From positions 1,429 through 64,269 of the forward strand of contig DFBK01000006.1 of NCBI GenBank assembly GCA_002366595.1: a stretch of DNA of 62,841 nucleotides, read 5' to 3'. This stretch comes from Anaerolineales bacterium UBA3082. Its GTDB lineage: Bacteria; Chloroflexota; Anaerolineae; UBA7937. This document shows, in pieces, positions 11,688-21,024 of this stretch (positions are counted from its first letter, which is position 1; every line of letters begins with the position of its first letter). The notes under the pieces were generated by a model. The model ran no database searches, was not told the DNA's origin, and saw nothing but the letters and a program-made list of their open reading frames with translations. The position numbers and the translations under genes were made by a program.

Positions 11688-12797
11688 TTAGAGGTTGAGA
11701 GCATCCCTTATCCTATTCAAGAACCCCTTCTCGCTCTGGGGGATGACCTCTTTGCCCAGGCTCTTGGACAATCGCTTGAGGAGTTCTCGCTGTTCCTCGG
11801 TGAGGTTGGTGGGGGTGACCACATAGACGGTAACCAACTGGTCGCCACGGCCATCGCCTCTCAGGTGGGGGATACCCCTATTTTTTAGCCTGAAGGTCTC
11901 GCCCGTCTGGGTGCCCGCGGGGATGGCGAGGGTAGTCGTGCCCTCCAAGGTGGGCACCTCCACCTCATCGCCCAGGGCAGCCTGGGCTATATTGATGGGC
12001 AACTCCAGGAAGATGTTGGAGTCTTGCCGCTTGAAATAGCGATGCCTCTTGACTGAGAGGTGCACATAGAGGTTTCCGGGCGGCCCACCCCATAAGCCCG
12101 CTTCTCCCTCCCCATCCAGGCGGAGTCGGACTCCGGAATCAACGCCTGCGGGGGTAGTCACCTCTAGCGTCTTAGTGACGCGGACGCGCCTATCCCCTCG
12201 GCACTCCCCACAGGCGGTGACCACCACTTCCCCCTCCCCGTGGCAGCGAGGGCAGGTGGTCATACTGACGAAGGAGCCGAACAAAGACTGGCGGACATGG
12301 CGCACCTGACCTGTGCCCTGGCACTCGGGGCACCTTATGGGCTCCGTGCCCGGCTCAGCGCCGGTGCCGTGGCAGCGGGGGCAGGTATCCAAGCGGGAGA
12401 CCTCTATCTCCTTCTCGCAGCCGAAAACCGCCTCCTCGAACTCCAAGGTAAGGTCATAGCGGAGGTCCGAGCCCCGCTGAGCGCGGGCCCGGGGACCGCG
12501 AGGCCGCATCCCGAAGCCGAAGAAGTCCTCGAATATATCGCTCAAGCCGCCGAAGCCCATGTCGCCGAAGCCACCCATATCCGCGCGGCCGAAGCGGTCG
12601 TAGTTGGCCCGCTTCTGGGGGTCGTTTAGCACCTGGTAGGCCTCGTTTATCTCCTTGAAGCGGGCCTCGGCATTGGGGGATTTGTTCACATCAGGGTGGT
12701 ACTGGCGGGCCAGGTGGCGATAAGCCCGCTTTATATCATCTTGCGCGGCGTTCCGAGGGACGCCCAATATCTCGTAGAAATCGCGTCTAGCGCTCAT
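11688..12797 (-). CDS. dnaJ: molecular chaperone DnaJ
   Basis: J domain (DFYEILGVPRNA...YHPD), G/F region and four CxxCxGxG zinc-finger repeats. Confidence 0.97.
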   Translation of the reverse strand: MSARRDFYEILGVPRNAAQDDIKRAYRHLARQYHPDVNKSPNAEARFKEINEAYQVLNDPQKRANYDRFGRADMGGFGDMGFGGLSDIFEDFFGFGMRPRGPRARAQRGSDLRYDLTLEFEEAVFGCEKEIEVSRLDTCPRCHGTGAEPGTEPIRCPECQGTGQVRHVRQSLFGSFVSMTTCPRCHGEGEVVVTACGECRGDRRVRVTKTLEVTTPAGVDSGVRLRLDGEGEAGLWGGPPGNLYVHLSVKRHRYFKRQDSNIFLELPINIAQAALGDEVEVPTLEGTTTLAIPAGTQTGETFRLKNRGIPHLRGDGRGDQLVTVYVVTPTNLTEEQRELLKRLSKSLGKEVIPQSEKGFLNRIRDALNL

Positions 12798-12834: not shown

Positions 12835-13074
12835 TCACGCTTCGCGGTAGGCTTCCAAGAACTCGTCTCTCGAGATCCTTGCCTGGGTGCAGATGGCTCG
12901 TAGCGTTGAGCCTTTTATCTTGGGGTGATTAGGCATGGTTAGCGGCGTTTGGGTGCCGTCGGGGTTCTCATGCACCATAGAGATATGTTCCTTTTCACGA
13001 ACCAATCGGAAGCCGAGGTGTCTCAGGGCTTTGACCACCTTTCGCCTTGGTGCATCCACTGGCCATTTGGCCAT
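12835..13074 (-). CDS. hicA: HicA-family toxin (YcfA-like)
   Basis: 79 aa. KALRHLGFRLVRE..HISM...LTMPNHPKIKGSTLRAI pattern. Start overlaps the stop of the upstream HicB-like gene. Confidence 0.7.
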   Translation of the reverse strand: MAKWPVDAPRRKVVKALRHLGFRLVREKEHISMVHENPDGTQTPLTMPNHPKIKGSTLRAICTQARISRDEFLEAYREA

Positions 13075-13298
13075 TAGATAGACACCCCTGTCTCGGCAAC
13101 AAAGGCTTCAATGACTGGTGAGTCGGTCTCAAGAACCTCTTCGCCGAAGGTCTCAATATGAAAACGGATGGCCGATTTCACATCAGCCAGAGCCTCTTCG
13201 TAAGTATTCCCCTGGCCGACGACAACCCCTTTCAGTCCCAGCGGATATGCTATGTAGCCATCGGAATGTTTTTCAACCACTACCTTGAACTGTCGCAC
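13074..13298 (-). CDS. hicB: HicB-family antitoxin (UPF0150-like)
   Basis: 74 aa. FKVVVEKHSDGYIAYPLGLKGVVVGQGNTYEEALADVKSAIRFHIE is the typical UPF0150/HicB fold signature. Confidence 0.7.
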   Translation of the reverse strand: MRQFKVVVEKHSDGYIAYPLGLKGVVVGQGNTYEEALADVKSAIRFHIETFGEEVLETDSPVIEAFVAETGVSI

Positions 13299-13313
13299 CG
13301 TAGTATCCTCCTC

Positions 13314-13514
13314 TCAACGCTCTTGCTCAATCTCACTAATGGCTTGATCGAAGGGGATGGCTTCGTCCTTTGCTGCCTTGGCAGCATCATAGGCGCGGAT
13401 CGATTCCAGTTCCTCCAACTCCTCTGGTAACCTCTGATACTCATCTATACCGAGAAGCACCCCTACCCGTTTTCCCTTCTCATCAATTATGTATTTTCCG
13501 TTAAGAGAAGCCAT
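13314..13514 (-). CDS. Phd/RelB-like small antitoxin without an adjacent cognate toxin
   Basis: 66 aa. YIIDEKGKRVGVLLGIDEYQRLPEELEELESIRAYDAAKA...IPFDQAISEIE resembles antitoxins normally paired with RelE/ParE toxins. Confidence 0.55.
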   Translation of the reverse strand: MASLNGKYIIDEKGKRVGVLLGIDEYQRLPEELEELESIRAYDAAKAAKDEAIPFDQAISEIEQER

Positions 13515-13710: not shown

Positions 13711-13753
13711 CTGAAGCCTCGATTCCATTGTAACACTAGGGATTGGAACCTTT
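13711..13753. repeat. ~43-bp repeat U, copy 1
   Basis: ctgaagcctcgattccattgtaacactagggattggaaccttt. Recurs at 14657-14699 and 14829-14870. Confidence 0.9.
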
Positions 13754-13796
13754 CCCACAGGGATCCTGTAAGGATAGGCGGACCTCCTATTCACAT

Positions 13797-13821
13797 GATA
13801 ATCGCATCTAGCGCTCATAGG
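13797..13821 (-). repeat. duplicated dnaJ 5'-end fragment, copy 1
   Basis: atcgcatctagcgctcatagg matches the genuine dnaJ start region atcgcgtctagcgctcatagg (12780-12800), including the start codon. Confidence 0.85.
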
Positions 13822-13876: not shown

Positions 13877-14116
13877 TCAAGGGATATCTATGAATTCAGC
13901 AAAGGCTTGCGGCTCAGGAACAGGTAGGTTGTCTCCCCACAATCCTCGTACGTGCATTTCGACGGCTTCTTGCATGTTGCGCTTGACTTCCTCACGGGTT
14001 TTGCCCGTCGCCACACAACCGGGCGGGTCAGACGAGTACACCGAGTAGTTTCCATTTGCCTTTTCAACCACAATCAGAAAACGATACATAGGGAGTTGTT
14101 TCAAAGTTTCTCCCAC
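13877..14116 (-). CDS. HicB-like (UPF0150) antitoxin-type protein
   Basis: YRFLIVVEKANGNYSVYSSDPPGCVATGKTREEVKRNMQEAVEMHV. The start may be the internal Met at 14089. Confidence 0.65.
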   Translation of the reverse strand: MGETLKQLPMYRFLIVVEKANGNYSVYSSDPPGCVATGKTREEVKRNMQEAVEMHVRGLWGDNLPVPEPQAFAEFIDIP

Positions 14117-14322
14117 ACTTCTCTTTTGATTTCGGCCTGCTTTAGAATTCTGGAAAGCAACTCTTTTCCGATGTCTTTTTGGTGAGGGTTGGGAATGCGC
14201 AGAGTGATATCACCCTTGACCATAAATTGGTGCTTGCCTCCAGCATAAGGGCCTTCAAAGCCCAGTTCTCTCAGGTATCGAATCAAGTCTCCTCGCTTTA
14301 TGGGCCCAAAACGAGGCATCAA
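14101..14322 (-). CDS. hicA: HicA-family toxin
   Basis: 73 aa. LIRYLRELGFEGPYAGGKHQFMVKGDITLRIPNPHQKDIGKELLSRILKQA is a classic HicA pattern. Confidence 0.8.
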   Translation of the reverse strand: MMPRFGPIKRGDLIRYLRELGFEGPYAGGKHQFMVKGDITLRIPNPHQKDIGKELLSRILKQAEIKREVWEKL

Positions 14323-14561
14323 ACAACTTCCTTGATGGTCAACTCGATGCCATCAACGACTGGCAAGGGCAGGTTGCGCGATATTCGGAAAAGTATCCAG
14401 GCTTCTAAAGCCTCTTCCAATTCGTCGCGACATGCTTCAAGGGTGCTGGCATTAGCATAGATACCCTGGAAGCCATGGATTTCGCCGTAGAAGGTATTAT
14501 CATCGGGAAGGATTTCATACCTGGCCTTTTGCATCGCCGCACGGATATATCTGGTTAACAT
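14319..14561 (-). CDS. hicB: HicB-family antitoxin
   Basis: 80 aa. YIRAAMQKARYEILPDDNTFYGEIHGFQGIYANASTLEACRDELEEALEAWIL pattern. Overlaps the hicA start by 4 nt. Confidence 0.7.
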   Translation of the reverse strand: MLTRYIRAAMQKARYEILPDDNTFYGEIHGFQGIYANASTLEACRDELEEALEAWILFRISRNLPLPVVDGIELTIKEVV

Positions 14562-14656
14562 ATTGATGCCTCCTCAAGAACACCACTATCATTATATGCG
14601 AAGTTCAATTTATGTTCCTCTTATCTCCAACTCTACCGGGAGTGGTGTTTTGCCGG

Positions 14657-14699
14657 CTGAAGCCTCGATTCCATTGCAATCCGAGGGATTGAAGCCTTT
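14657..14699. repeat. repeat U, copy 2
   Basis: ctgaagcctcgattccattgcaatccgagggattgaagccttt. Confidence 0.85.
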
Positions 14700-14717
14700 A
14701 GGCGGAACTTCTATCCT

Positions 14718-14762
14718 GGGAACGCCCAGTATCTCGTAGAAATCGCGTCTAGCGCTCATAGG
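14718..14762 (-). repeat. duplicated dnaJ 5'-end fragment, copy 2 (45 bp)
   Basis: gggaacgcccagtatctcgtagaaatcgcgtctagcgctcatagg versus genuine gggacgcccaatatctcgtagaaatcgcgtctagcgctcatagg (12757-12800). Confidence 0.92.
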
Positions 14763-14828
14763 CTAACTGGTTAGTGTTTGCCGGCTGTCCTTACAGGATC
14801 CCTGTCCCGCAGGGATCCCGAGGGATGG

Positions 14829-14870
14829 GAAAGCCTCGATTCCATTGTAACACTAGGGATTGGAGCCTTT
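14829..14870. repeat. repeat U, copy 3
   Basis: gaaagcctcgattccattgtaacactagggattggagccttt. Confidence 0.9.
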
Positions 14871-14886
14871 AGGCGGAACTTCTACC

Positions 14887-14908
14887 AGAAATCGCGTCTA
14901 GCGCTCAT
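14887..14908 (-). repeat. duplicated dnaJ 5'-end fragment, copy 3
   Basis: agaaatcgcgtctagcgctcat is identical to 12776-12797. Confidence 0.9.
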
Positions 14909-14937
14909 GAATTATTAACCGACCATAGTTCAACTAC

Positions 14938-16374
14938 TTAGCCACTGGAAGAGGCCGGCAAGGCGAGTTCGTATCGGCCTATGACTTCCTGTTTGTCAAA
15001 AAGATATGCGTTCTTAGTAGCGGTATTTACCAGCAAGAGAGCGTGCGGAATCACTTTTAAGAGTTCATAACTAGCTAGCCGATGAATCGGGGAGTCGGTT
15101 TTCCTATTCATGCATATCACAGCCATGTGAGGCCCGGTTTCCCAGGTCGAGATGATGTCCTTCTTGAAGCTACCCGAAGTCTCAACCTCAATTGCTGCAA
15201 ACACATCACCGTCGGCGTCTAGCCAAACGCAGTCAACTCGGGAGCCCTTGACAGAGTATTCGGTCATCGGCACAAACCCAGACTCCGATCCTATGCGTGC
15301 CAGGGCCTTGATGTAGCGCTTATGATCGTCACCCTGTTCCATTCGACAGTATGTTTCTAGGCTAGTCATAATCCGCCTGACCAAGGCATTGATGTCGCCC
15401 TCTATCTCCCTATCATATGCATATTCGAAGATTCGACCCTCGTCTATGACGATCAGATCGACCCCGCCTTTCAGATACTCGACTACCTTTGAGTCTGTTC
15501 GTTGCTTGGAACCCAGGGGCGGATGTACTGATATGAGCACGCGAGCTTTGTCAAGGAGTACAAATCCGCGCCACCACTCCCCTAGAACGTAGGAGATGTC
15601 GGGATCAGCCTCCCGAAGCAATTGCACAACGAGAGCGAGGCGCCACTTGCAGTAGTTCTCCCCGTGTTGATACCCCGGTGTCAGACTTGGAATGGGCCCA
15701 TACTTGCAAGCGACTCGTTCGATGTCAGAGCGACAACCTTCGCAGCAAAAGTATAGATAGGTTGTGGTTCTTCTTACGGGGATGCTTGGGAGGTCATGCA
15801 GTGCCTCGGACGGATGATCTCTCGTACGCTCTTGCTTGGTAAGCCTAATTGCACTCTGAAGCAACTCCTTTTCGGGGTTCAAGAAACTCAGGTGTGCACA
15901 AGAATCTATTCCGCCATCAAATTCTTTGAAAACCTCTTGGAGTCCAAGTTCGCGGAGCAGCCTTGGCTCAACCGCAAGGGGAACTTGGTAGAAATGTGGC
16001 ACGCCCGCGTCTACCTTTCTGGTTCCAGACATCCATCCTCCAGGCAGATTCGCTAGCCGGGCAAGCACAGGCACCCTCTCCGCTGTCTTGATCCATATGT
16101 CACTTGAGGCCGTCTCTTTGATAATCGAAAAGACCTTATGCGTTCTAAGAAAAGCAATGGCCTTTCGCGCCACTTCCAGCTGCTGGTCGTCCAAGTTGTA
16201 GCTCAGCCGCTTGTCAAATGGTGCGTCACATAACTTGCAAAGTTCCTTAGGCACCCCATCTTGACTTATGCGCTTTCCTGTTGCCCGTTCCAATGCTGGG
16301 TACTTTTTCACAAGTTGGATTATCTCAGTTCTATCCATCGTTTCCTCTGAAGCGCTTTGGTTGTTCCTTGTCAA
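14938..16374 (-). CDS. uncharacterised 478-aa protein with a PD-(D/E)xK-like C-terminal region
   Basis: Long ORF with GC lower than its flanks. Cys clusters CKLCD and CCEGC...C. The C-terminal GSRVDCVWLDADGDVFAAIEVETSGSFKKD resembles a restriction-endonuclease-fold D...ExE...K core. Confidence 0.6.
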   Translation of the reverse strand: MTRNNQSASEETMDRTEIIQLVKKYPALERATGKRISQDGVPKELCKLCDAPFDKRLSYNLDDQQLEVARKAIAFLRTHKVFSIIKETASSDIWIKTAERVPVLARLANLPGGWMSGTRKVDAGVPHFYQVPLAVEPRLLRELGLQEVFKEFDGGIDSCAHLSFLNPEKELLQSAIRLTKQERTRDHPSEALHDLPSIPVRRTTTYLYFCCEGCRSDIERVACKYGPIPSLTPGYQHGENYCKWRLALVVQLLREADPDISYVLGEWWRGFVLLDKARVLISVHPPLGSKQRTDSKVVEYLKGGVDLIVIDEGRIFEYAYDREIEGDINALVRRIMTSLETYCRMEQGDDHKRYIKALARIGSESGFVPMTEYSVKGSRVDCVWLDADGDVFAAIEVETSGSFKKDIISTWETGPHMAVICMNRKTDSPIHRLASYELLKVIPHALLLVNTATKNAYLFDKQEVIGRYELALPASSSG

Positions 16375-16411
16375 TAGGCGTCATAGAGCGTGGACCGGTG
16401 GTGCAAAATGC

Positions 16412-17398
16412 TTAGATGCGCATTGAAATGGCTGCGTCGATACTCTGACAGATGAAATCAGTGGTGTCCAACGGCAGAGGACGTGTCGCCCTCGGATTTC
16501 GCCACAAACTCGACTGGTATCGCTGGCTTCCGGATCTTCTCCACTTGGAGGCAAACACAACCGCCGAAAGTGATGGATGTAAACCACGCCTAACTTCTCT
16601 ATCCAGATAACTTGTAGCTTCGGGGAACTCGGTATCTTCTTTAGCGTGGCTCTCGCTAAAGAGTACAAGAAGATTAATCTCATTCGGGATGGCCTGTCGC
16701 AGTTTTCCCTCGATCTTGGAACGTAGCCCCTCCTCATGGTGTGGATAGCCAACGAGCTTCGAATGGTATGCTCGCAGCAGTTCCGTCACATGGGTGTCTT
16801 CGCGAAGGCGCGTGACCTCTACAAACATTCGCTTTTCGGCAAAGTCAACTCGCTGGTCAGGTCCGGCCGCCCCGCAAGGACGGAACACCACCGCCGAGTC
16901 TGGTGTGGCAAAACCAAGCGTGACCTTGCCCTCAAAGAAATGATCTAGGAATCCCTGTTCATCGCCAATGGAGTTTCCTAAGTCGCGAAGATACGCGGGT
17001 ATACCTTCTATCGAGGCCTTGAGAAGATTCTCTTCCATCCGTTGCATCCTCACACACTGACCCAACATGAGAATTCCACGCGCAATATGGTCCTCCCCGT
17101 TCAAATCAAGCAACTCCTTGAAGAGACGATGTTGTTTTAGTCGCTGAACACTCCAACCAAAGTCTGGATGTGCTACAAGAGCTGTCCCTAGTTTGGCTTG
17201 GCGGTTCTGGTCGCTAATGACCACTGCCAGCCAGGCCTCTCGTGACTCCGTGTCTAGGTCAGGGCAAGCTCCACAGGCTGCTGAGAAATTCCGATACGTT
17301 TGCAAGGTGTCTAATAGATGAAGGCAAGTCTTAAGTTCACGTGGCGGCTGCGTACAAATAAACTTCTTGAACCGTGTAAAAGAATTATGCCCGGCCAT
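16412..17398 (-). CDS. uncharacterised 328-aa protein, first gene of a two-gene module
   Basis: Intact ORF 37 nt upstream of 14938-16374 on the same strand. No motif recognised beyond a possible GPDQRVDF...VEVTRL acidic core. Confidence 0.55.
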   Translation of the reverse strand: MAGHNSFTRFKKFICTQPPRELKTCLHLLDTLQTYRNFSAACGACPDLDTESREAWLAVVISDQNRQAKLGTALVAHPDFGWSVQRLKQHRLFKELLDLNGEDHIARGILMLGQCVRMQRMEENLLKASIEGIPAYLRDLGNSIGDEQGFLDHFFEGKVTLGFATPDSAVVFRPCGAAGPDQRVDFAEKRMFVEVTRLREDTHVTELLRAYHSKLVGYPHHEEGLRSKIEGKLRQAIPNEINLLVLFSESHAKEDTEFPEATSYLDREVRRGLHPSLSAVVFASKWRRSGSQRYQSSLWRNPRATRPLPLDTTDFICQSIDAAISMRI

Positions 17399-17419: not shown

Positions 17420-17446
17420 GGGGCGAGGGCCTAAGGCCCCCGCCCC
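17420..17446. other. GC-rich stem-loop between dnaK and the inserted module
   Basis: ggggcgagggcc-taa-ggcccccgcccc. The T-rich tract is only on the plus-strand side, so terminator function for dnaK (minus strand) is doubtful. Confidence 0.4.
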
Positions 17447-17452
17447 TTGTGT

Positions 17453-19339
17453 TTATACCTCTCTAAACTCCCCCTCTACCGTGCCCTCGTCTTCTGGCGG
17501 CTTCTTTTCACCTTCCGGGGGCGGGGTGGGGCCTCCGGCGGCCTGGTACATGCTGGCGCCGATCTTCTGCAAGACTTGGCCTAACTCTTCGGTCTTGCGG
17601 CGGATGAGGGCGATGTCCTTGCCCTTCATCGCCTCTCGGACTTCCTTGACCTTGGCCTCTACCTCGCTCCGCACATCTGTGGGCACCTTGTCGCCCAGAT
17701 CGCGCAAGGTCTTCTCCGCCGTGTAAGCCACGGAATCAGCGTAGTTTCGGGCCTCTATCTCCTCCTTCCGCCTCTTGTCCTCGGCCTCGTGCTCCCTGGC
17801 CTCCTTCACCATCCGCTCGATCTCCTCCTCGGTGAGGCCACTGGAAGCGGTGATGGTGATATGCTGTTCCCTACCCGTGGCCTTATCCTGGGCCCCGACG
17901 TTGAGGATGCCGTCGGCGTCTATATCAAAGGTGACCTCGATCTGGGGGATGCCCCGCGGCGCTGGAGGGATGCCGTCCAGCATGAAGCGCCCCAGGGTCT
18001 TGTTGTCAGCGGCCATGGGCCGCTCCCCTTGCAACACATGTATCTCCACCGAGGTCTGCGCATCGGCGGCGGTGGAGAAGATCTGAGACTTCTTGGTGGG
18101 GATGGTGGTATTCCGCTCAATTAAGGGCGTAGCCACTCGACCCAGGGTCTCGATGCTCAGGGTCAGGGGGGTGACATCCAGGAGCAAGATGTCCTTCACC
18201 TCTCCTTTCAGCACCCCAGCTTGGATGGCCGCCCCCAGACCCACCACCTCGTCGGGGTTAATCCCCTTATGGGGCTCCTTGCCGAAGAACTCAGCCATCA
18301 TCTTCTGGACGGCGGGCATCCGCGTCTGTCCTCCTACCAAGATAACCTCATCGATATCGGAAGGCTTAACTTTCGCATCCTCCAGCGCCTGCTTCATAGG
18401 GGGCAGAGTCTTCTCCACGAGATCCCCCACCAACTGCTCCAGTTTAGACCGGGTAATGGTCATAGTGAGATGCTTGGGGCCGGAGGAGTCAGCGGTGATG
18501 AAGGGGAGGTTGATCTCCGTCTGCATCACGGTGGAGAGTTCGCACTTGGCCTTCTCCGCCGCCTCCTTCAGCCGCTGGAGGGCCATCCTATCCTGGCGCA
18601 GGTCTATCCCTTGCTCCTTCTTGAACTCGTCGGCTATCCAGTCGATGACCCGCTGGTCGAAGTCATCGCCTCCCAGGTGGGTGTCCCCGTTGGTGGACTT
18701 CACCTCGAAGACCCCCTCGCCTATCTCCAAGATAGAGATGTCGTAGGTGCCGCCCCCCAAGTCGAAAACCGCTATCCGCTCGTCTATCTTCTTGTCCAAG
18801 CCATAAGCCAGGGAGGAGGCGGTGGGCTCGTTGATGATGCGCAGGACTTTCAGTCCCGCTATCTTGCCCGCCTCCTTAGTGGCCTGCCTCTGGGAGTCGT
18901 TGAAATAAGCAGGAACGGTGATCACCGCCTCGGTCACCGGCTCGCCCAGGTAGGCCTCCGCGTCCGTCCTCAATTTCTGGAGGATCATAGAGGATATCTC
19001 GGGTGGCGAATACTCCTTGCCCCCCATATGCACGCGCACATCCCCGTTAGGGGCCTCGCTCAATTTGAAAGGCACGAGTTCGATATCGTGCTGTACCGTG
19101 GAGTCCCTATACTTGCGCCCCATGAACCGCTTAATGGAGAAGATGGTATTTTCAGAGTTAGTTACCGCCTGACGTTTGGCCACCTGGCCTGCCAACCTCT
19201 CCCCCGTCTTGGTGACCGCCACCACTGAGGGGCAGAGTCGCGACCCCTCAGCGGTAGGGATCACCGTGGGCTCTCCACCCTCCATAACCGCGGCCACGGA
19301 GTTGGTGGTCCCTAAATCTATGCCTATCGCCTTAGCCAT
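17453..19339 (-). CDS. dnaK: molecular chaperone DnaK (Hsp70)
   Basis: 628 aa. [21 protein letters not shown] and [11 protein letters not shown] signatures. Confidence 0.98.
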
Positions 19340-20997: not shown

Positions 20998-21024
20998 TTA
21001 GCACTCTCTTGATTAGAGTGCTAA
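20998..21024. promoter_or_regulatory. CIRCE operator (HrcA binding site)
   Basis: Perfect TTAGCACTC-N9-GAGTGCTAA inverted repeat 20 nt upstream of the hrcA start. Confidence 0.95.

Follow-up and report, generated by a model that had tools for sequence, protein, structure and literature searches.

We analysed a 62,841-nucleotide (nt) stretch of contig DFBK01000006.1 from Anaerolineales bacterium UBA3082, hereafter the window, in which the gap between the chaperone genes dnaK and dnaJ carries two open reading frames (ORFs), A and B, together with toxin-antitoxin (TA) cassettes. The genes around the locus have the order hrcA-grpE-dnaK-[gap]-dnaJ-prmA-rsmE, and the gap, which we refer to as the slot, holds different genes in related genomes. 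An earlier note made from the letters of this DNA had described two intact co-directional ORFs 37 nt apart, and both are present at 14938..16374 and 16412..17398. The start of B has however to be revised as the ATG at 16338 is used in all public gene calls and in all five close homologues, and in two of the related loci (L003 and L004) an in-frame TAG lies four codons upstream of it. Since B starts at this ATG and not at the TTG of the maximal ORF, the true distance between A and B is 73 nt, and residue numbers of B refer throughout to the version of 466 amino acids (aa). By our estimate an open frame of 328 codons, the length of A, would arise by chance at ~1e-7 in random sequence. The G+C content across A and B (0.49-0.53 over 14750-17250) lies below that of dnaK (0.58-0.63) and dnaJ (0.62-0.65), in line with what had been noticed before. 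The features on which the account rests are as follows.

17453..19339, minus strand: dnaK, the left-hand core flank of the slot
16412..17398, minus strand: ORF A, 328 aa, ATG start, orphan cargo beginning ~11 nt past the left junction of the slot
14938..16374, minus strand: gene B as the maximal ORF, 478 aa, TTG start
14938..16338, minus strand: gene B from the conserved ATG, 466 aa, the conserved element of this report and founder of an uncurated family
15649..16257, minus strand: N-terminal and middle region of B, aa 28-230, eight conserved metal-ligand candidates
14941..15405, minus strand: C-terminal domain of B, aa 312-466, predicted restriction-endonuclease-like α-β-β-β-α-β core
11688..12797, minus strand: dnaJ, the right-hand core flank, at whose ATG homology among relatives restarts

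B founds a small, rare and uncurated protein family within a known superfamily. Its five close homologues are 85, 71, 64, 62 and 27% identical to it, and when 1.84 billion cluster representatives (clustered at 50% identity, cut-off E<=1e-3) were searched exhaustively with a profile, 77 were recovered, 35 of them at E<=1e-30. Full-length members of 450-490 aa number about 30. The C-terminal domain, about 150 aa long, is found in further architectures as well, among them proteins of 620-676 aa. Relatives of B are encoded at 41 loci in a scan of metagenomes and in just one of 185,579 species genomes, a Pirellulales metagenome-assembled genome (MAG). A Pfam scan at E<=1 with 34 of the C-terminal domains and 29 full-length members gave scattered single-member noise only, and B profiles and phmmer searches against PDB sequences gave nothing meaningful. 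Neither A nor B matched Pfam, NCBIfam, PADLOC, PHROGs or PDB sequences, which agrees with the earlier impression that neither protein belongs to a recognised family.

Two variants of the architecture can be described. The Pirellulales MAG (CAZTKW010000356.1; L007:1501-4191) encodes two tandem paralogues of 396 and 486 aa with the B C-terminal domain, the second of which has the B-type domain at its centre, with an extension of ~185 aa behind it. The 620-676-aa proteins (P0055, P0060, P0064, P0067 and P0070) form a longer sister family that shares the C-terminal domain and the C-x-H and C-x-x-C motifs, is without the lysines K392/K393 discussed below and has no Pfam or PADLOC match. A partial ORF of 70 aa at the edge of L001 looked by eye like an IS256 transposase; Pfam did not confirm this and it was not used as evidence.

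The distribution of A is quite different. A search among 5.8 billion proteins returned only A itself, and the only other trace of it is a shortened remnant in L001 corresponding to aa 249-328 (70% identity), with a ratio of nonsynonymous to synonymous substitution rates (dN/dS) of ~0.6. The order at this locus is A remnant – B – dnaJ – prmA – rsmE. In L002, where A is absent, it is 283-aa ORF – B – 172-aa ORF, in L003 it is X293 – B – 117-aa ORF, in L004 and L005 it is dnaK – X313 – B – dnaJ (X293 and X313 being unrelated ORFs) and in L006 the B homologue has unrelated neighbours. Remote homology between A and X313 was tested and none was found. B meanwhile is under purifying selection whatever its neighbours, with dN/dS of 0.21-0.43 against four homologues, and it diverges faster than the adjacent dnaJ (window against L001: dS 0.60 and dN 0.22 for B, dS 0.28 and dN 0.05 for dnaJ). 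B is a conserved, selected and horizontally mobile gene.

Because B persists intact and under purifying selection without A, a conserved two-gene module is unsupported, and the proposal of such a module in the earlier note is not borne out: across genomes A and B are not found together beyond the L001 remnant, and B stands instead beside X313, X293 or other unrelated ORFs. An obligate two-gene system, with A acting for instance as sensor, immunity protein or antitoxin of a B nuclease, would account for the co-directional arrangement at 73 nt, for the remnant kept upstream of B in L001 and for the last 24 codons of A that are retained upstream of B in L003 and L004. We nevertheless consider it very unlikely given the lack of any other A homologue, the intact and selected B where A is truncated (L001), replaced (L003, L004) or absent (L002), the weak constraint on the remnant, and an A-like neighbour at none of the 41 distant loci. 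Nor did A or B match TA families, and with 328 and 466 aa at a distance of 73 nt they do not look like a type II TA pair. A is most likely an orphan, unrelated and evolving fast, which occupies the slot together with B and is not a functional partner that B requires.

Upstream of B a leader is conserved in the window, L001, L003 and L004.

16339..16487, minus strand: conserved leader of ~150 nt upstream of B

Its 5' half coincides with the last 24 codons of A in the window while the whole leader is intergenic in L003 and L004. The A-B arrangement may be ancestral in this clade; A would then have been truncated or replaced afterwards, and B would have kept the leader. As a candidate RNA element the leader gave no Rfam match and a weak consensus fold without convincing covariation in the four sequences. 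Its 5' CCUCUG could pair with CAGAGG at the ribosome-binding site of B, and no covariation was seen there. As to a possible mini-ORF, the variable columns of the leader fall 12/4/7 by codon position, and the L004 leader contains a mini-ORF of 23 codons (MSLPLDATDFVCQSVDAAISMRI).

In order to address what B might do we modelled it with AlphaFold2 (AF2) from 29 sequences and obtained a second, poorer model from six; the Foldseek searches used the full-length models. The 29-sequence model has a mean predicted local distance difference test (pLDDT) score of 82.4 and a predicted template modelling score (pTM) of 0.72, with pLDDT rising to 87-96 in the C-terminal domain (aa 331-460). There the modelled order of α338-352, β356-363, β366-373, β379-386, α392-400 and β405-410 is that of the core of the restriction-endonuclease, or PD-(D/E)xK, fold. 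The best compact PDB hit was the nuclease domain of DrdV (probability 1.0, template modelling (TM) score 0.48 on the target), and the six-sequence model again placed it first (probability 0.89, TM 0.45), followed by EndA, DUF820 and Hjc. Further compact matches of high probability were to YaeQ and, in BFVD, to viral MmcB-like and PD-(D/E)XK nucleases. Matches to nitrilases and amidases (E ~1e-4) were rejected, their root-mean-square deviation (rmsd) being 14-15 A and their TM 0.17-0.28 with no CN_hydrolase profile hit; they were discarded because of this rmsd and because they were absent with the other model. DrdV is a type IIL enzyme of the MmeI family (PDB 7lvv/7lo5) and shares ~150 aligned columns with the B domain. 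B is however only 13-14% identical to it, and in the window neither a methyltransferase nor a specificity domain is fused to B or lies next to it; a relative of B stands beside a type IIG enzyme at one distant locus only (L042).

The conservation of the domain points in the same direction. When 34 C-terminal domains, 20-52% identical to that of B in the window, were compared, H339, D369, W372, E384, E386 and P403 proved invariant and E360, D394 and E400 nearly so, and D369, E384 and E386 are invariant also in the 29 full-length members. D369 lies on strand 2 and E384-V-E386 on strand 3 of the model. Invariance of the three acidic residues across such divergent domains is what a metal-binding active site would be expected to show, and we therefore regard D369 and E384-x-E386, joined in the core family by K392/K393, as a putative active site. 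The earlier note had seen in the end of B a D...E-x-E...K arrangement reminiscent of these nucleases. The motif is there (15157..15246), its fold is supported by the models from both alignments with DrdV as best compact match, and its acidic residues are conserved throughout the family; the lysine part held only for the core family.

Several points weigh against a catalytic restriction fold. The third motif position is a glutamate (E386) in every member in place of the canonical lysine, and K392/K393, 6-7 residues further on where the next helix begins, are invariant in the core family only and lost in the wider domain family. Restriction-fold proteins recur among the Foldseek matches at a probability of up to 1.0 but with TM of 0.31-0.53 and E >= 4e-4. 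Similarity to solved members of the fold is modest, with TM of 0.44-0.53 on the target and weak E-values of ~4e-3, and no link to any PD-(D/E)xK family was found at the sequence level. An hhalign comparison of the C-domain profile with a D..ExK nuclease resembling PDC-S61, encoded in the same slot of a relative (L060), was likewise not significant (probability 0.1%), E384-x-E386 falling on the E-I-K of the L060 protein in that non-significant alignment. These are the grounds on which B could instead be a catalytically inert protein, its degenerate endonuclease fold serving DNA binding or regulation and its likeness to nucleases going no further than the fold. We consider such a protein quite unlikely in view of the invariance of D369, E384 and E386, and near invariance of E360 and D394, across domains of 20-52% identity. 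D...E-x-E sites are moreover catalytic in BamHI (Asp94/Glu111/Glu113), and variants of the BamHI type do without the motif lysine. B shares with BamHI an acidic residue in place of lysine at the third catalytic position, a likeness in motif only as no homology to BamHI is shown. On balance the models and the conservation make it probable, at a level at which we would be surprised to be wrong, that B contains a restriction-fold and probably catalytic domain.

The Cys clusters pointed out in the earlier note also proved to be a family trait. Eight candidate metal ligands (C34, C37, C147, H149, C199, C202, C211 and C230) are each kept in 23-28 of 29 members, and judged by their number they could suffice for two tetrahedral metal sites, either two Zn or Zn and an Fe-S cluster. 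Neither Pfam nor PDB gave a match for the B family including its N-terminal region. Cas4, AddB and Dna2 are PD-(D/E)xK nucleases with an Fe-S cluster, and B resembles them in joining conserved Cys ligands with a restriction-fold domain; its C199-x2-C202-x8-C211...C230 could bind such a cluster. In B however the ligands do not flank the core but precede it by 100-300 residues, a histidine is among them, and there is no sequence match to these enzymes.

The surroundings of B show that the gap between dnaK and dnaJ is a hypervariable slot in which B is exchangeable cargo. Relatives clustering at >=90% identity with the DnaJ of the window are named Anaerolineae/Chloroflexota MAG proteins, and together with the window they carry seven different cargo sets between dnaK and dnaJ, with sharp junctions. 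On the left the 3' end of dnaK is shared and a GC-rich hairpin and ~10 nt following it are the conserved boundary in five relatives, after which the sequences diverge completely until the dnaJ ATG; the ATG of A lies ~21 nt past the hairpin with no obvious Shine-Dalgarno sequence.

17420..17446, minus strand: GC-rich hairpin (GGGGCGGGGGCC-TTA-GGCCCTCGCCCC, no U-tract), 6 nt past the dnaK stop
Cargo in the window: A, B and the TA cassettes, 4655 nt
Cargo in L004 and L005: X313 and B
Cargo in L001: A remnant and B
Cargo in L049 and L050: ORFs of 168 and 82 aa and HicB
Cargo in L051-L053: an AIPR protein of 579 aa matching AbiU (E=4e-41)
Cargo in L054 and L055: a 290-aa protein of unknown type, overlapping the dnaJ ATG
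Cargo in L060: a 304-aa protein (L060:724-1638) matching PDC-S61 (E=1.8e-8) and a reverse transcriptase-associated PD-(D/E)xK model, with Phd-ParE

Known defence or TA genes in the seven variants sampled are thus AbiU, the PDC-S61 candidate, HicAB and Phd-ParE, and the description of the region as an accretion island in a defence-type neighbourhood gains from the sister genomes, which hold AbiU, the PDC-S61-like nuclease and TA pairs in the slot. The AbiU/AIPR protein occupies exactly the same position as A and B and is unrelated to either in sequence and domain content. The 304-aa protein of L060 has a textbook D..E-I-K..QxxxY motif and no Pfam hit on record. Core-gene-flanked hotspots of defence have been described in Pseudomonas aeruginosa (cDHS1/2; PMC10250203), and defence islands in E. 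coli (PMC10121019). The slot has in common with these the variable cargo between invariant core genes, the mixture of known defence genes with many unknowns and a cargo not tied to one mobile element. It differs in being tiny (1-4.7 kb), in lying inside a heat-shock operon and co-directional with it, and in having cassettes that are led by a duplicated 5' end of the flanking gene.

Most of these duplications are found in front of TA genes. That TA modules adjoin A and B had been proposed and they are real, comprising two HicA, HicB/UPF0150-like and Phd-like proteins (HicA E=4e-12 and 2.5e-11, HicB/UPF0150 E=1.5e-8 and 2.9e-30; the Phd-like antitoxin at E=1.3e-5 is below the Pfam gathering score).

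13877..14561, minus strand: TA cassette 1, with a UPF0150/HicB-like gene (14319..14561), HicA (14101..14322) and HicB (13877..14116)
12835..13514, minus strand: TA cassette 2, with a Phd-like gene (13314..13514), a weak HicB-like ORF (13074..13298) and HicA (12835..13074)
14887..14908, minus strand: dnaJ 5' stub 1, 22 nt, 100% identical to the dnaJ start, 29 nt downstream of the B stop
14722..14763, minus strand: dnaJ 5' stub 2, 42 nt, 97.6% identical, leading the HicB-HicA-HicB cassette
13800..13821, minus strand: dnaJ 5' stub 3, 22 nt, 95% identical, leading the Phd-like/HicB-like/HicA cassette
L049 and L050, 9516-9541: dnaJ stub of 26 nt
L060, ~1664-1830: dnaJ stub of ~165 nt, before the Phd-ParE cassette

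The stubs of the window sit in the two ORF-free gaps of the slot. The 29 nt between B and stub 1 equals the spacing of B and dnaJ in L001, and the ORF at stub 2 (14610..14759, minus strand) begins MSARRDFYEILGVPR. Behind each stub of the window comes an imperfect but conserved palindrome of ~55 nt (14831-14884, 14660-14713 and 13714-13767), as it does behind that of L049 (9542-9597), and among the DNA compared this palindrome occurs in the slot only. After stubs 2 and 3 the palindrome is succeeded by a shared leader ending TATAAT and then by the TA genes, and the same unit of stub, palindrome and leader precedes HicB in L049 and L050. From the dnaJ 5' copies that lead the TA cassettes we infer that these were inserted one after another at the 5' end of dnaJ, each of which would bring a fresh dnaJ start and leave the old one behind as a stub. 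The variable length of the duplication (22, 42 and ~165 nt) would favour homology-driven exchange over a fixed att core. The first stub lies downstream of both A and B, so in this lineage the two genes are older than the TA cassettes, which fits their earlier description as the innermost unit of the island. TA cassette 1 has an unusual three-gene order with overlaps of 4 and 16 nt, and its HicB shares 79% identity with the one encoded in the slot of L049. The Phd-like antitoxin of cassette 2 is 88% identical to the Phd of L060 (L060:1864-2318) which is there paired with ParE; in the window no ParE follows it and the weak HicB-like ORF and HicA stand instead, so it may be an orphaned antitoxin or have swapped its toxin.

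B could also work for mobile elements rather than for host immunity, as a nuclease that is selfish or serves their maintenance. It might be a homing-type endonuclease by which its own cassette spreads into conserved intergenic sites, or might have a plasmid or integrated-element function alongside ParB. B moves as a unit with its own conserved leader of ~150 nt, diverges faster than its flanks and lies, as is frequent for free-standing homing endonucleases, between highly conserved genes. At eight of the distant loci (L020, L022, L027, L032, L035, L036, L042 and L044) a gene with ParB_N and HTH_ParB domains lies directly beside the B homologue on the same strand. It encodes 280-300 aa with a Cys-rich C-terminus (for example L022:1982-2821) and is a recurrent neighbour in the distant subclade, and in L044 it is preceded by a gene resembling tyrosine integrases. 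A profile of this ParB-like cluster matched neither A nor X313. We regard a selfish nuclease as fairly unlikely all the same. Close homologues at 62-71% identity (L002, L003) occupy different sites, so that no fixed homing site is evident, and the left flank of B itself bears no stub or repeat, the stubs belonging to the TA cassettes. Relatives of B were also found in none of the IMG/VR, PLSDB plasmid and INPHARED phage records searched.

The position within a heat-shock operon raises a further explanation. Upstream of hrcA lies a perfect CIRCE (controlling inverted repeat of chaperone expression) operator.

20998..21024, plus strand: CIRCE operator, TTAGCACTC-N9-GAGTGCTAA

It has no mismatch, and 100 shuffled sequences gave no match. 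The operon is therefore of the classical heat-shock type under HrcA control, and all cargo of the slot lies downstream of an HrcA-controlled promoter. Near A and B the gene strand showed neither a sigma-70-like promoter nor an intrinsic terminator of note. The hairpin behind dnaK, being without a U-tract, suggests by its sequence read-through or processing rather than termination, which makes read-through into the slot plausible. B could accordingly be an accessory nuclease of DNA repair or recombination, useful under stress and co-expressed with the chaperones. Its structural neighbours include MmcB-like and Hjc nucleases of repair and resolution, and one archaeal homologue lies ~4 kb from HerA/NurA beside exonuclease-like genes. 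Such a role is in our view distinctly improbable as the family is extremely rare and its occurrence in bacteria and archaea patchy, its presence varies among near-identical genomes that have Abi or TA genes in the same position, and no repair gene is a conserved neighbour.

The proposal that we prefer is that B is a stand-alone restriction-fold nuclease directed against mobile DNA and carried as cargo of the dnaK-dnaJ slot; taken as one statement we hold it with a belief that stops a little short of even. B would act as a single protein that attacks invading DNA by the logic of Shedu or of type IV restriction, its N-terminal metal-binding region sensing or binding nucleic acid and thereby licensing the C-terminal nuclease. 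Shedu (SduA, DUF4263) is, as outlined in two reports (10.1101/2023.08.10.552793; 10.1101/2023.08.10.552762), an immune nuclease in one polypeptide with a C-terminal PD-(D/E)xK core and a variable N-terminal sensor. On that outline B is comparable, being likewise a single polypeptide with a predicted C-terminal core of the PD-(D/E)xK type and no methylase, ATPase or helicase partner. It differs in its motif, which is E-x-E rather than E-x-K, in the eight-ligand Cys/His region and in the lack of any DUF4263, Pfam or PADLOC match among its members. By these searches B falls outside Shedu/DUF4263 and outside every curated family. The absence of a methyltransferase partner, by which A and B had been set apart from classical restriction-modification, also holds: none was found in the slot, and prmA downstream of dnaJ is the methyltransferase of ribosomal protein L11 and a conserved member of the operon.

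A role in defence, taken by itself, is a tentative proposal that appeals to us somewhat less than we doubt it. The mining of defence islands commonly turns up candidate single-gene nucleases. Some distant homologues of B adjoin a type IIG restriction-methylase, a DrmC-like phospholipase D (PLD) nuclease or an integrase. In L042 the type IIG enzyme (L042:8497-11748, E=2.4e-85) lies directly downstream of the ParB-B pair, split into two ORFs of 697 and 362 aa that cover one PADLOC model end to end. What speaks against defence is that the argument is guilt by location in one lineage, that PADLOC has no match for B, that the virus, plasmid and phage collections named above hold no relative of it, and that several distant homologues lie among metabolic or archaeal informational genes and not in defence islands. 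Some of the B loci are archaeal, with TFIIB, HerA/NurA or TrmB as neighbours. The family, its rarity and the purifying selection on B are shown by the analysis, as are the modelled fold, the residue conservation, the variability of the slot, its junctions and the stubs, and from these we infer the nuclease activity, the metal binding and the defence role of B.

A more far-reaching version joins two claims, namely that B represents a new single-gene family of immune nucleases, with a metal-cluster sensor and a restriction-fold D...E-x-E effector, and that the slot is an array of defence cassettes wired to the heat-shock response and growing by duplication of the dnaJ 5' end. The cargo would then be tied in its transcription to the proteotoxic stress of phage infection. 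Phages make use of DnaK/DnaJ or disturb them, and DnaJ is able to act in the sensing of phages (PMC12169576). As a whole we rate this version as unlikely.

If B does restrict phages or plasmids it would represent a new and very rare family of single-protein immune nucleases with an undescribed N-terminal metal-binding module, and would extend knowledge of defence to Chloroflexota and sediment archaea where it is almost unexplored. Whatever B does, a compact slot for defence and TA cassettes lies inside a universally conserved heat-shock operon and bears insertion scars in the form of dnaJ stubs. With the dnaK-dnaJ interval as bait, Anaerolineae MAGs can be searched cheaply for new defence genes, and the coupling of cargo expression to the heat-shock response is a testable idea.

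Beyond the slot, a gene of the rve type (integrase core) and an ORF of 148 aa are inserted in L051 between glycosyltransferase genes and hrcA (L051:3028-4335), a further sign of mobile-element traffic round the operon.

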